From NCBI GenBank assembly GCA_030613565.1, contig JAUWLS010000002.1, forward strand, positions 2,321-66,320: DNA of 64,000 nt. The letters are read 5' to 3'. Made by a program: the position numbers and the translations under genes. The notes under the pieces are model-generated. The model did not search any database, was not told where the DNA came from, and saw nothing but the letters and a program-made list of their open reading frames with translations. Shown here piece after piece: positions 29,089 to 35,887 of the stretch; position 1 is the stretch's first letter; the number at the start of each line of letters is the position of its first letter. The DNA comes from Candidatus Shapirobacteria bacterium. Lineage in GTDB: Bacteria > Patescibacteriota > Microgenomatia > UBA12405 > JAUWLS01.

Positions 29089-30459
29089 TTAAAGCCTTTT
29101 TAGTTCCAGGAGTAGAGCAGAGTTGGGAGATAAAGGGAGAGATCGAGCATAAAAGTTGGTGTCAATTGTGGTTTGAGTAGTAGTAGTTTTTCCAGGATAG
29201 TTGGTGGTTTTTATTTGATAAGTTCCAGGGTCTAGATTTCTAATATAAACCGGGACTGTTTCGTGGTGGGTGTTTCTTTGATCGTAATTAACTAAAAGTA
29301 CTTGAGTGGTGGTTCCATTTTGGGAGGCAAGGCCAGTAACCCAAGAACCTTCTCCTTTAAGAAGAAGCCTGTTTCCTCCTAGTTGGTTTAGGAGTTTAAG
29401 AGCTTGATAGCGAGGTTTCTCTTTTAAACCCTTAGATTCGTGGGTTAAAAGACCCCAACCTTGAGATTGTTTGTTTCGAGGTTGAGGACCATCTTTAATT
29501 TCAAAAGTAAAAAGACGGTGTATTTTTCCAGAGAGTCGGGTGACCATAGAGAGAAGGTGGGTTCCAGAAAGGTGAGAGTCATACCAAGCATCTGGTTCTG
29601 GATTAGGTCCAAACTCAGTGATGATACGTTCGATGTTGAAGTATTCGGGATAGTCGGTAAGGATTTGGCTTAGTTTTTCAAAATCATCTTCGTATTCCTC
29701 GGGGTTTTTACTGTATTTATGCCAGGAGACAAAGTCCATTCTGAGTCCATTTTCGTGAGCAAACTTAAAAAGACTTTTAAACCAGTTTGGATAAAAAGCA
29801 GTAATAGCCGGTCCACCAATTTTGTAGGGATTAGTGTTGGGGGCAGATTGGGCTCCTTTTACAGAGTGGTAGTAGAGGGTTTGGTAGTTGGGGTTTTTGG
29901 CATAGTGCCAGTTTCCAAAAAGATCTGGTTCATTCCAGACTTCATAGTAGATGTTGGTGATGTTTTGTTGATTTCGACCAGAGTAGTGTTCTACAGTGGC
30001 ACGAATTAAGCTTTGCCATTCATTCCAGTCTTTGGGAGGGTCAATAATAGATCCATTTTGGGCAAGAGAGGAGGGGGTGTAAGAAAGAGAAAGCATTGGT
30101 TTGGCTCCAGTTTGAAGAATGGAGTTGACAGCTTGGTCAAGGCCAGAAAAGTCGTAGTTTCCAGGACTTTTGTAGACATCGAAAAAGTCGTAAATGTGAT
30201 CCAGGCGGATATATTGGGGAGAGAGAGCGGCGACTTGAGGGAGAGCTGAGGAAAGCATGTCCTTTGATTCCTCTCCTCCTTGAGCAAGATTTTGCCAAAG
30301 AGAGGAAGGAACAGAGCCTTGAGGAGATTTGACATCGACAAAGATGTTGGCAAGAGTGCCAGCAGCACCTTTTCGAAGATCGTTTACAGTTTTTAGGCCA
30401 AGAATTAAGAGAGGGAGAAGGACTAATAATAGTAGGGTAGTTTTGAGGCCTTTGCTCAT
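29089..30459 (-). CDS. secreted glycoside hydrolase, clan GH-A (GH5/GH39-like TIM barrel) with C-terminal beta-sandwich
   Basis: Signal peptide; YEVWNEPD (acid/base Glu in NEP) and ITEFGPNP (nucleophile Glu) spaced as in GH-A. Confidence 0.55.
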   Translation of the reverse strand: MSKGLKTTLLLLVLLPLLILGLKTVNDLRKGAAGTLANIFVDVKSPQGSVPSSLWQNLAQGGEESKDMLSSALPQVAALSPQYIRLDHIYDFFDVYKSPGNYDFSGLDQAVNSILQTGAKPMLSLSYTPSSLAQNGSIIDPPKDWNEWQSLIRATVEHYSGRNQQNITNIYYEVWNEPDLFGNWHYAKNPNYQTLYYHSVKGAQSAPNTNPYKIGGPAITAFYPNWFKSLFKFAHENGLRMDFVSWHKYSKNPEEYEDDFEKLSQILTDYPEYFNIERIITEFGPNPEPDAWYDSHLSGTHLLSMVTRLSGKIHRLFTFEIKDGPQPRNKQSQGWGLLTHESKGLKEKPRYQALKLLNQLGGNRLLLKGEGSWVTGLASQNGTTTQVLLVNYDQRNTHHETVPVYIRNLDPGTYQIKTTNYPGKTTTTQTTIDTNFYARSLPLSPNSALLLELKRL

Positions 30460-30497
30460 TAATTAAGATAGTACAGGAAAAATGCGGTGATTGCCCG

Positions 30498-30527
30498 TTG
30501 ACAGAGGAAAAGGAAATATGTTCTAAT
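30498..30527 (+). promoter_or_regulatory. putative sigma70 promoter (TTGACA ... TCTAAT)
   Basis: TTGACA at 30498-30503, 18-nt spacer, TCTAAT at 30522-30527, about 30 nt upstream of the ATG at 30559. Confidence 0.35.
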
Positions 30528-30558
30528 GAATTATTGTTTTAACCTCTAGGTAAAAAAA

Positions 30559-34417: not shown

Positions 34418-34422
34418 GAGAT

Positions 34423-35169
34423 ATGAAGGAAAGAGAATCTAGAGTAAGAAAAATAAGTTTTGGTTGGTCCTTTTTGACCCTGATGTTATTGTCTTTGACA
34501 GTAATGAGTTTAGGAGTAAAAGCTGTTTGGGCAGGTCCTAGGATGTACTTGGATCCAGGAACTGGGACTTTTAGTTCGAATTTTGATGTTACTTTGAAGA
34601 TTGATACAGAGACAGAGACGGTGAAGGCAAGTGAAGCTTTAATGAACTACGATACAACTCGTTTGGGAATAGTTTCAGTTGTAGAAGCCGGGAGTCCATT
34701 TTTTTCTGAGATGGGATACGATGTAGATGAGGCAACTGGAGAGCTTTTGATTTATAACTACGAAATGGACATGTTTGGAAAGACAGGGACGGGGGATTTG
34801 GCAGTGATTACTTTTTCAATTTTAGGATCTGGAACAGCAGAAGTGAATTTTGTTTGTGAGGACGGAGTTTCTACGGATTCTAATATGTCAGGAGATAATG
34901 CAGAAGACGTAATTGACTGTGCTTCAGTTGGGGGAGGGTCGTATACCTTAAGTTCTGACGGAACAGCTCCAACATCTACACCAACCGGTGACTCAACGGC
35001 AACACCAACCACAGCAGCAGGGGCCTCTACATCTACACCAACCGGTGACTCAACGGCAACACCAACCACAGCTTCTGAGCTTCCTGAGACGGGGTTCGCG
35101 CTTCCTTCAGTGATGGTAGTTTCTTTAGGGGTAATACTTCTGGCTTTTGGTTTGTTTGTTTGGTTTTAA
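34423..35169 (+). CDS. cohesin-like domain surface protein with Thr/Pro linker repeats and LPXTG-type sorting signal
   Basis: Signal peptide; cohesin-like beta-domain; 19-aa repeat TSTPTGDSTATPTTAAGAS x2; C-terminal LPETG followed by a hydrophobic helix. Confidence 0.5.
   Translation: MKERESRVRKISFGWSFLTLMLLSLTVMSLGVKAVWAGPRMYLDPGTGTFSSNFDVTLKIDTETETVKASEALMNYDTTRLGIVSVVEAGSPFFSEMGYDVDEATGELLIYNYEMDMFGKTGTGDLAVITFSILGSGTAEVNFVCEDGVSTDSNMSGDNAEDVIDCASVGGGSYTLSSDGTAPTSTPTGDSTATPTTAAGASTSTPTGDSTATPTTASELPETGFALPSVMVVSLGVILLAFGLFVWF
34972..35085 (+). repeat. 57-bp tandem repeat (x2) encoding Thr/Pro linker
   Basis: acatctacaccaaccggtgactcaacggcaacaccaaccacagc at 34972 and again at 35029. Confidence 0.7.
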
Positions 35170-35170
35170 A

Positions 35171-35887
35171 ATGAAAGAAAAGGGAAAAACAAAAAGTTTA
35201 GTTGTAGTTTTGATTTTAGTTTTAGTGGGTGTTTTGGCGGTTTTTGGTTTGAATACAGCAAAAGATATGTTTTCTTCGGCTGCAGGTGGAGCAGAGCCTA
35301 CAGGAGTGAAGGTGGATGCTAAAGATAATTCGGCGACAATTAGTTGGACTACAGAAAAAGATGTAATGGCGGTTTTGCAGTATGGTACAACACCAGCAAG
35401 TTTGCTTTTAAGGGCATTGGAGACCACTCCGGGGGCAACCCACAGGGTGGCCATATCGCCTTTAAAGTCAGGTACTACCTATTATTTTAATATTAGGGTG
35501 GGAGATGACATTTTTGACAATGGAGGAATACCCTATTCGTTCAAAACAATGGCTGGTGGAGAAACAGTGCCAGCAGCAGGTGGGGCATTGGAAGATATGG
35601 TTCCAGGTGAAGCAACTGCCGCTCCAACTAAAGCCCAGCAAGCAACTGCCGCTCCAACCAAGGCAGCAACTGGAGACAAGTGTGGATTTTTGAAAGAATA
35701 TTATGGAGATACAGATAGTGAGTACGATTACAACGCAGATGGAAAGGTGAATGTGTTGGATTTCGTGATTTGTCAGGATTGTCAAAAGATTTTGAATAAC
35801 ATGGGTTCAAGTGATGCGGAGTATGATAAAAACGGAGATGGTAGAGTGAATATGCCAGACTATGTTCAGTGTCTTTCAGGTAGCTAA
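35171..35887 (+). CDS. FN3-like domain protein with C-terminal type-I dockerin-like repeats
   Basis: Signal anchor; FN3-like SATISWTTEKDV...TTYYFNIRV; dockerin-like pairs DYNADGKVNVLDFVICQ and DKNGDGRVNMPDYVQCL. Confidence 0.5.
   Translation: MKEKGKTKSLVVVLILVLVGVLAVFGLNTAKDMFSSAAGGAEPTGVKVDAKDNSATISWTTEKDVMAVLQYGTTPASLLLRALETTPGATHRVAISPLKSGTTYYFNIRVGDDIFDNGGIPYSFKTMAGGETVPAAGGALEDMVPGEATAAPTKAQQATAAPTKAATGDKCGFLKEYYGDTDSEYDYNADGKVNVLDFVICQDCQKILNNMGSSDAEYDKNGDGRVNMPDYVQCLSGS

Follow-up and report, generated by a model that had tools for sequence, protein, structure and literature searches.

What kind of surface structure is specified by six adjoining genes (p1–p6; Table 1) in a 64-kb window (the entire stretch of DNA analysed) from a tiny-genome, Microgenomates-type (CPR) bacterium, given that every product begins with a hydrophobic export/anchor segment? 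The preliminary description of this locus proposed a minimal, cellulosome-like system, i.e., an anchored cohesin with dockerin-bearing partners and a glycoside hydrolase. All six ORFs were found where that description had placed them, and the motifs it quoted (WNEP, ITEFG, LPETG, and a pair of Ca-binding loops) are all present. Two starts were revised: the ORF call for p3 opens at 32546, but orthologues begin at MEKNN (32612), and a 246-aa p6 ORF from TTG 35147 was judged too long. Genes p2–p6 form a tight operon, lying on the same strand with intergenic gaps of 1, 42, 5, and 1 nt, and Shine-Dalgarno-like sequences (GGAGGA/GAGAGG) precede p3 and p4. In a promoter/terminator scan, matches were no more frequent than in shuffled sequence, and NCBIfam and PHROGs annotation yielded nothing beyond the Pfam calls detailed below.

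Table 1. Genes p1–p6 and their constituent features, in window coordinates.
Feature	Position (nt)	Length or residues (aa)	Strand	Description or basis
p1	29089..30459	456	-	predicted GH39-family glycoside hydrolase
p1 ITEFG motif	29608-29622	280		read from sequence
p1 WNEP motif	29926-29937	175
p2	30559..32610	683	+	putative modular cargo protein, 60 Cys; alternative start ATG 30592
p2 CxxC and dockerin-like tail	32377..32607	607-683	+	loops DFDCTNEITMDD and DVDCDGEATVDD
p3	32612..33766	384	+	putative cohesin-X-dockerin mini-scaffoldin/adaptor
p3 cohesin-like domain	32714-33079	~35-156	+	hhalign, fold match
p3 dockerin-like tail	33557-33763	316-384	+	C-terminal profile
p4	33809..34417	202	+	cohesin-like protein, N-terminal TM helix
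p4 cohesin-like domain	33968-34375	~54-189	+	hhalign, PDB profile
p5	34423..35169	248	+	putative anchoring cohesin with LPETG
p5 cohesin domain	34540-34950	~40-176	+	Pfam, profile, fold
p5 LPETG motif	35080-35094	220-224
p6	35171..35887	238	+	putative FN3-like cargo protein with dockerin-like pair
p6 FN3-like domain (purple-acid-phosphatase N-terminal type)	35321-35548		+	Pur_ac_phosph_N, 34.6 bits
p6 dockerin loops	35726-35761 and 35825-35860		+	DYNADGKVNVLD / DKNGDGRVNMPD

Each of p3, p4, and p5 contributes one cohesin-fold module to the operon; p6 adds one dockerin that passes its Pfam cut-off, and p2 and p3 each end in a dockerin-like tail. The proposal of a surface cohesin/dockerin scaffold with an LPXTG cohesin in a CPR-type genome is therefore supported, and the set of modules, three of cohesin and three of dockerin-like type, is richer than in the preliminary description. 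The Pfam searches put forward at the time do return calls, for Cohesin (PF00963) in p5 and for Dockerin_1 (PF00404) in p6. The p5 call is marginal, at 24.2 bits against a cut-off of 24.1, i.e., passing by 0.1 bit; the p5 family profile matches PDB cohesins 1g1k, 2vn5, 4ums, and 3ghp. The AF2 model of p5 is confident in its core (pLDDT above 90 over aa 40-143), and its first 49 Foldseek matches in the PDB are cohesins without exception (E to 1e-7, TM to 0.72), spanning types I, II, and III as well as non-cellulosomal representatives. The model thus predicts the nine-stranded β-sandwich (jelly-roll) fold of cohesins for p5.

The signal peptide of p5 ends ...VWA/GP, and its C-terminal part comprises a Thr/Pro/Ser stalk, in which the repeat TPTGDSTATPTTA appears twice, and the LPETG motif, followed by hydrophobic FALPSVMVVSLGVILLAFGLFVWF. 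This hydrophobic tail contains no K/R, the positive tail of a classical sorting signal being missing, and p5 and its closest homologues terminate in FVWF, FIWF, or FVWL. LPxTG is kept in 14 p5 homologues and, together with a hydrophobic tail, occurs in 113 of 127 small p5-family representatives; K/R is found within the last six residues of 77 of the 113 LPxTG-bearing members. Multi-cohesin relatives exist elsewhere, e.g., P0030 with 9 stretches. The sortase motif TLxTC was detected neither in the window nor in 16 related loci; a related Microgenomates genome is reported to encode a sortase (PMC7143001).

Proteins p3 and p4 had been described as hypothetical, one of them dockerin-tailed; the tail of p3 is indeed dockerin-like, but both proteins carry cohesin-like domains that had been overlooked. 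By hhalign of family profiles, p3, p4, and p5 are paralogues, with p4 matching the p5 family at 96.9% (E 1.3e-10) and the N-terminal domain of p3 matching it at 96.3% (E 2e-9). In the window, p4 has no Pfam match and p3 no Pfam Cohesin match; among orthologues, Cohesin scores above the cut-off were obtained for p4 in L015 (27.5 bits) and for p3 in L007 (33.5 bits) and L015 (31.2 bits). The p4 profile retrieves from the PDB the cohesin 3ul4_A (E 7.9e-4) and next the Clostridium perfringens NagJ cohesin, and the N-terminal TM helix of p4 bears an invariant Glu-Ser pair, E24 and S25 (IVESIY). Protein p3 opens with a TM segment and an SQDSRKSA motif, and its middle portion is a β-sandwich at the "X" position with an invariant KGPKH motif; PF00404 is present in its homologues, some of which have PF00963 in addition. 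The AF2 model of p3 (pLDDT 62) most closely resembles the C-terminus of Clostridium thermocellum CipA (CohI9-X-DocII; 4fl4_C and 3kcp_A, E 2.8e-8, ~350 aligned columns, global TM 0.28-0.36), with which it shares the order of cohesin, X-position β-sandwich, and dockerin, the middle domain being matched to X modules by position. Its N-terminal domain matches cohesins at TM 0.6-0.73 by Foldseek. Unlike CipA, p3 has one cohesin, no CBM3, and an N-terminal membrane/signal segment of its own.

Among the tails, that of p6 is the clearest dockerin by Pfam, scoring 32.4 bits for Dockerin_1 (cut-off 22.9) and only 16.5 bits for EF-hand_7. In p6, a TM/signal segment, the FN3-like domain, and an Ala/Thr/Pro linker lead to a Cys-bracketed pair of perfect loops with D-N-D-N-D at positions 1, 3, 5, 9, and 12, the dockerin-typical Asp at position 12 thus being present in both. 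In PDB profile searches with this tail, EF-hand pairs and dockerins score alike, the R. bromii Amy12 dockerin being among the matches, and more distant p6 orthologues retain one loop, short of a canonical dockerin. The p3 tail falls under the Dockerin_1 cut-off (14.8-16.5 bits), with an orthologue in L010 above it (30.6 bits). All 17 PDB matches to the p3 C-terminal profile with E < 0.04 are dockerin-bearing chains, headed by the X-dockerins 4u3s_B and 4wi0_B and followed by 3ul4_B, 2ccl_B, and 1ohz_B at E ~2e-4; loop 1 of this tail has an X-dockerin-like insertion and loop 2 is DINGNNLVETLD. Taken alone, the p2 tail also scores below the cut-off (16.2 bits, E 0.013), and a profile of it from four orthologues matches the R. 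flavefaciens dockerin 5lxv_B (E 2.7e-4). At the Ca-ligand positions its loop 2 is good and its loop 1 degenerate, and hhalign detected no significant similarity between this tail and those of p3 and p6.

The rest of p2 is modular, as judged from its sequence and Cys count and from alignment with its L006, L008, and L010 orthologues. Besides duplicated Cys-knot modules (aa 66-176, 189-222/411-441, 241-277/282-317, and 324-400), it contains a Pro/Thr linker and, from ~aa 500 onward, an Ig-like domain. No Pfam family scored above its cut-off for p2, no PDB sequence matched it, and a homologue search with its C-terminal half gave no result. Its N-terminus consists of a TM segment and a TDSRSSA motif; a type IV prepilin signal (QKG/IAQLP) was considered there and rejected, since both a Glu at +5 and an N_methyl match are missing, and we leave that stretch as an unexplained motif. 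All of the cargo proteins possess N-terminal hydrophobic segments of their own and could be membrane-anchored singly.

The order p3-p4-p5-p6 is shared by at least 10 further loci (L001, L005/8, L006, L007, L009/12, L010, L013, L014, L015, and L016), among which identity falls to ~31%, and is nearly always flanked by rseP and rpsU-yqeY-ybeY-dnaX. Upstream of it, across loci, lie one to three non-catalytic proteins that vary, yet always end in a dockerin repeat and contain no catalytic domain; in the p2 slots of L015 and L016, Dockerin_1 scores were 29.2 (the L015 cargo), 21.8, and 21.5 bits, and a further orthologue scored 20.5 bits, the last three values being just under the cut-off of 22.9. 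Within the window, the three cohesin-like family profiles match only p3, p4, and p5 among all ORFs of at least 50 aa, and the Ca-loop pattern matches only p2 and p6. Since these profiles and this pattern are confined to the cluster, and since its gene order is kept elsewhere, the grouping of cohesin and dockerin modules exceeds chance. Scans of sequence collections with p5 patterns found 4 loci in genomes and 3 in metagenomes. The preliminary description had called such a system unusual and little described. In the sense of rare, the former does not hold, as the small cohesin-LPXTG family already numbers 266 representative clusters at E<=1e-30, a figure that grows to 4,280 at E<=1e-10, and the operon occupies a fixed housekeeping site in many relatives; the latter agrees with our literature search, which found no paper tying cohesin or dockerin to Microgenomates.

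On balance, we favor the view that the p2–p6 operon specifies a cell-surface cohesin-dockerin assembly of non-catalytic proteins, the best reading being a Ca-dependent display/adhesion complex rather than a cellulosome. In such an assembly, p5 would be fixed to the wall via LPETG cleavage by a sortase encoded elsewhere or, alternatively, be retained in the membrane through its C-terminal helix, and p4 would be held through its N-terminal helix. With Ca2+, the X-dockerin of p3 would plug into the anchoring cohesin of p4 or p5; the p3 cohesin and the remaining anchor cohesin may in turn capture the dockerins of p2 (disulfide-rich, Ig-like) and p6 (FN3-like). Which dockerin pairs with which cohesin, and indeed any pairing at all, is pure inference. 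As the cargo modules are of binding rather than catalytic type, its most likely role would be in adhesion or surface architecture (e.g., attachment to host cells or glycans), not polymer degradation.

Several of the same observations could be accommodated if these were independent surface proteins, with the cohesin-like sandwiches and Ca-loop tails acting as generic structural or stabilizing envelope modules (of an S-layer-like or wall-associated coat), no specific pairing, and a clustering that reflects co-regulation and duplication ancestry. The EF-hand-like behavior of the p6 tail in PDB searches and its single loop in distant orthologues, the sub-cut-off tails of p2 and p3, the membrane/signal segment on each protein, and the paralogy of p3, p4, and p5 all fit such a coat; moreover, Peer et al. 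reportedly noted in 2009 that, outside cellulosomes, the majority of cohesins and dockerins lack a known partner. We nonetheless regard independence as unlikely, if the most serious competitor to a cohesin-dockerin assembly: the three cohesins are consistently accompanied by three dockerin-type tails, the upstream slot changes its occupant but not its dockerin-repeat terminus, p3 displays the complete Coh-X-Doc layout of a known adaptor, and both p6 loops have Asp at position 12. Far harder to sustain is a sortase-assembled pilus or fibril, in which p5 and its neighbors would be pilin-like Ig-fold subunits polymerized by a pilus sortase. The LPETG of p5 and weaker Foldseek matches of the p3 model to the Gram-positive pilins EbpB, BcpA, LrpA, and GBS80 point that way, but these matches rank below those to cohesins, the N-terminal domains are cohesins by sequence profile, the LPXTG signal is found in one of five proteins, and none of the loci has a sortase gene within or beside the cluster; with a single LPXTG protein and no sortase nearby, we rejected this exceedingly improbable scenario.

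The enzyme-tethering proposal, i.e., that GH39 or other glycoside hydrolases dock on an anchored cohesin and degrade polysaccharide at the surface, involves p1. Its family profile (Pfam Glyco_hydro_39, 95.7 bits; cut-off 26) and the presence of both catalytic-Glu motifs predict a GH39 enzyme (clan GH-A); its best PDB matches are GH39 β-xylosidases (E 7e-23), to whose WNEP its own is aligned, and a PslG-like GH39 was rejected given that these matches are canonical xylosidases and not PslG. The p1 N-terminus has a hydrophobic anchor (TLLLLVLLPLLILGL) and then NDLRKGA, an instance of the TM plus [QN][DE]xR[KR]xA arrangement common to the GH39 protein, p2, and p3. This shared N-terminus favors tethering, as does the adjacency of a GH39 gene to the cluster in the window, L005/L008, L010, and L014, and dockerin-bearing enzymes could sit elsewhere in the genome. 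Against it, Pfam, PDB profile, and Ca-loop pattern searches found no dockerin in p1, which is separately membrane-anchored, not docked. The GH39 gene is missing from the L015 cluster and the L002-4 locus, so that its adjacency may be plain synteny. None of at least eight dockerin-bearing proteins (from the window, L004, L008, L010, L014, L015, and L016) has a catalytic or CBM Pfam domain, and dockerin-bearing carbohydrate-active enzymes, a defining component of cellulosomes, were found neither in the window nor in the loci examined. Likewise, no multi-cohesin scaffoldin with a CBM was found, p3, p4, and p5 having one cohesin each and no CBM. A cellulosome-like tethering system is thus improbable, and that element of the preliminary description is not supported.

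Known systems offer partial parallels for a non-catalytic assembly. In the sca cluster of Ruminococcus flavefaciens, ScaE is a sortase-anchored cohesin, CttA and ScaB carry X-dockerins, and CttA is a non-catalytic binding protein. There, as in p2–p6, a single cohesin with a linker and LPXTG, the putative wall anchor in the case of p5, is clustered with dockerin-bearing partners, and the p5 fold matches include cohesin structures of ScaE (2zf9, 4iu2/4iu3). In contrast to sca, p2–p6 contain neither a multi-cohesin scaffoldin (ScaA/ScaB) nor dockerin-bearing enzymes, include an additional TM-anchored cohesin (p4) and a p5 devoid of a charged tail, and display only 10-20% identity. Cohesins and dockerins also serve beyond cellulose degradation in the NagJ/NagH toxin complexes of C. 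perfringens, the Archaeoglobus fulgidus cohesin 2xdh, and the Ruminococcus bromii amylosome; NagJ cohesins match p4 and p3, and 2xdh matches p5. However, those systems join enzymes, whereas the docking candidates among p2–p6 are all non-catalytic and encoded in one conserved operon.

Attachment of ultra-small CPR bacteria to hosts or substrates is largely obscure apart from type IV pili. In the cultivated Saccharibacterium Southlakia epibionticum, a dockerin-domain envelope protein is essential, and host-glycan targeting was suggested by the authors for its dockerin and FN3 envelope proteins (PMC10633639); cohesin is not mentioned in that paper. The likeness to p2–p6, namely the presence of dockerin and FN3 domains in CPR envelope proteins, is one of domain type. 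For uncultivated Microgenomates, the operon represents a concrete candidate modular system of attachment or surface architecture, through which cohesin-dockerin biology would reach past enzyme complexes. As a bolder and doubtful extension, p3-p4-p5-p6 plus exchangeable dockerin-tagged cargo might constitute a vertically inherited, lineage-wide Microgenomates surface organelle, a plug-and-play adhesion platform on which variable Cys-knot, Ig, and FN3 cargo would set host or substrate specificity for episymbiosis, with the TM plus QETRRGA motif serving in targeting or processing and also recruiting GH39. The nine candidate module pairs are small soluble domains, accessible without cultivating the organism.

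Within the cluster, cohesin folds and dockerin-type tails, three of each, are encoded together with export segments and are kept as a unit. The six open reading frames of the preliminary description were all confirmed at their coordinates, and every motif that it quoted was found in the sequence. Since p2–p6, the cohesin/dockerin-type genes, share one strand, are separated by gaps of 1, 42, 5, and 1 nt, and carry Shine–Dalgarno-like sites (GGAGGA before p3 and GAGAGG before p4), they form an operon divergent from p1, the adjacent hydrolase gene. All six products begin with a K/R-rich stretch followed by 15–23 hydrophobic residues. 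In searches within the window, cohesin-like profiles matched p3, p4, and p5 only, and a Ca-loop pattern matched p2 and p6 only.

Coordinates of the cluster genes and of other features (window positions unless a related locus is named)
Feature	Coordinates	Strand	Details
p1, predicted GH39 hydrolase	29089-30459	minus	456 aa
p2	30559-32610	+	683 aa, 60 Cys
p3	start ATG 32612	+	384 aa; start set by orthologue alignments and the sequence itself
p4	33809-34417	+	202 aa
p5	34423-35169	+	248 aa
p6	start ATG 35171	+	238 aa; start set by orthologue alignments and the sequence itself
NDLRKGA, p1	about 30367-30387	minus	aa 25-31
TDSRSSA, p2	30715-30735		aa 53-59
QDSRKSA, p3	32687-32707		aa 26-32
Small Cys modules, p2	31279-31509		aa 241-317
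Small Cys modules, L004	10704-12267
Small Cys modules, L007	208-1932
Cys-position-4 loops, p2 tail	32377-32607
Cys-position-4 loops, L015	2212-7363
Glu-Ser pair (IVESIY), p4	33872-33889		aa 22-27
Cation ATPase and exchanger, L002/L003/L004	12288-15700
Basic paralogues	10603-11235; 11305-11931	minus	about 210 aa
Acidic protein	11989-13194		401 aa
Coupling-protein-like gene	16423-18618	minus
Possible T4SS island	16423-24681
Small secreted protein	49226-49693	minus

For p5, the Pfam Cohesin cutoff was passed marginally (24.2 vs. 24.1); a profile from 14 homologues matched PDB cohesins (1g1k, 2vn5, 4ums, and 3ghp), and the best 49 Foldseek PDB matches of its AF2 model (core pLDDT above 90) were cohesins throughout (E down to 1e-7, TM up to 0.72). 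Behind the cohesin domain, a Thr/Pro/Ser stalk leads to LPETG and a hydrophobic tail devoid of K/R. A full HMMER scan with the p5 family returned 14,984 representative clusters at E ≤ 1e-3, a number that falls to 4,280 at E ≤ 1e-10 and to 266 at E ≤ 1e-30, the majority being 220–250 aa long and laid out as in p5, with LPxTG in 113 of 127 small members. No Pfam family was called for p4; its family aligns with that of p5 (hhalign 96.9%, E 1.3e-10), its PDB matches include cohesin 3ul4_A and the Clostridium perfringens NagJ cohesin, and its orthologue in the related locus L015 lies above the Pfam Cohesin cutoff (27.5 bits). As judged from sequence, p4 is a cohesin-like protein with a predicted N-terminal helix anchor. 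Midway along this helix, a Glu-Ser pair is invariant in 8/8 orthologues; conservation of a charge in a single-pass helix suggests that the anchor has a helix–helix partner.

Both module types meet in p3. Its N-terminal domain is cohesin-like (hhalign 96.3%), and all 17 PDB matches of its C-terminal profile with E < 0.04 are dockerin-bearing chains, among which X-dockerins rank best (E about 2e-4). Homologues carry PF00404, some also PF00963, orthologues pass both the cohesin and dockerin Pfam cutoffs, and the closest match to a modest AF2 model (pLDDT 62) is the CohI9-X-DocII fragment of the Clostridium thermocellum scaffoldin CipA. In p6, an FN3-like Pur_ac_phosph_N domain (34.6 bits) precedes a tail scoring 32.4 bits for Dockerin_1 vs. 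16.5 for EF-hand_7, with Asp at position 12 in both loops; one Cys-bracketed loop remains in distant orthologues. p2 combines duplicated Cys-knot modules with a Pro/Thr linker and an Ig-like domain; its tail, CxxC plus two loops, is weakly dockerin-like (Dockerin_1 16.2 bits; 5lxv_B at E 2.7e-4).

The nearest labelled relative, a Candidatus Shapirobacteria MAG (Patescibacteria, Microgenomates group), is 66–76% identical over the cluster. By hmmsearch, the order p3-p4-p5-p6 recurs in related loci L005/8, L006, L007, L010, L013, L014, L015, and L016, the upstream part being lost at contig ends in L001 and L009/12. Conserved clusters are flanked by tsf-frr-rseP and rpsU-yqeY-ybeY-dnaX; one related set, L002-4, occupies another genomic position. 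The upstream slot holds 1–3 variable proteins with C-terminal dockerin repeats, and no catalytic domain was seen in them in the window or related loci.

The closest known systems are the Ruminococcus flavefaciens sca cluster, the CipA C-terminus, and noncellulosomal pairs, examples being A. fulgidus 2xdh and NagJ of C. perfringens. The sca cluster combines an LPXTG cohesin, ScaE, with a noncatalytic X-dockerin protein, CttA. By analogy with ScaE and CipA, p5 would serve as an anchor, via sortase or its own C-terminal helix, and p4 as a second, via its N-terminal helix; the p3 X-dockerin would plug into one anchor, with p2 and p6 captured by the p3 cohesin and the remaining anchor. We lean towards a noncatalytic surface cohesin–dockerin assembly, for which adhesion or surface architecture would be likelier than catalysis given that the cargo is of a binding type. 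That the proteins instead act independently, their β-sandwich and Ca modules being generic, we consider doubtful. PDB searches do not separate EF-hand pairs from dockerins for the p6 tail, and hhalign detected no significant similarity of the p2 tail to those of p3 and p6.

The cluster had been described as cellulosome-like, a label that failed its defining tests: the cluster differs from a cellulosome in that docked enzymes, a multicohesin scaffoldin, and a CBM are all absent. True enzyme tethering would involve p1 or other glycoside hydrolases. p1 is assigned by sequence to GH39 (Pfam 95.7 bits; nearest PDB relatives GH39 β-xylosidases, E 7e-23, with WNEP aligned), and it adjoins the cluster in four lineages and is missing from L015. 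However, no dockerin was found in p1 and the cargo is noncatalytic, making tethering improbable. A related Microgenomates genome is reported to contain both sortase and GH39 (PMC7143001). A TLxTC motif search found no sortase gene in the window or related loci, and a sortase pilus appears very improbable. A Saccharibacterium possesses an essential envelope protein with a dockerin domain (PMC10633639); in the literature searched, no paper tied cohesin or dockerin to Microgenomates.

Several further features were observed in the cluster proteins. In p1, p2, and p3, [QN][ED]xR[KRS]x[AG] lies at most a few residues past the TM helix; this motif is confined to these three among the 111 ORFs of ≥80 aa in the window and to cluster proteins among ORFs of ≥100 aa in 16 loci. 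Orthologues from L005, L007, L010, L014, L015, and L016 show the form QETRRGA; no database family matched the motif, which might serve as a signal dedicated to targeting or cleavage. Cargo dockerin-like loops carry Cys at position 4 (DFDCTNE, DVDCDGE, DLDCNG, DGDCDGE, and DFNCDGE) with CxxC or CxC immediately upstream, and four Cys bracket the p6 tail, a pattern that suggests disulfide-clasped dockerins. The repeated small modules of p2 (C-x6-C-x6-C-x11-C-x6-CC) resemble β-defensin or crotamine in spacing, with weak database matches (Myotoxin, E 0.76; AtDEF-like, 0.017; WAP, 0.0026); similar knots are inserted into p3 orthologues. At L002/L003/L004, the sole locus where the set lacks its customary housekeeping neighbours, the genes directly after it encode a P-type cation (Ca-type) ATPase and a Na/Ca exchanger, a suggestive placement as dockerins are Ca-dependent.

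Across the window (positions 1-64000), G and C are shared very unequally between the strands, the + strand containing 26.65% G and 13.02% C; GC skew is positive for genes of either orientation, with a monotonic climb in cumulative skew. Genomes of the Microgenomates order UBA1400 are reported to show the same disparity (PMC7143001). A T4SS coupling-protein-like gene (TrwB_AAD_bind, TraG-D_C, and DUF87 matches) lies beside a raised-GC block (51.5% at 20–22 kb vs. about 39% elsewhere) encoding a membrane protein of 538 aa, for which an M23 peptidase match was weak, and three proteins without Pfam matches; this region is a possible T4SS island of conjugative or CPR type. Two neighbouring paralogous basic proteins, without a Pfam family at the default threshold, adjoin an acidic protein without matches. 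Finally, a small secreted protein with Glucodextran_B/Big_6 Ig-like domain matches and the secreted Glu-rich 258-aa protein adjoining it are additional surface proteins outside the cluster.
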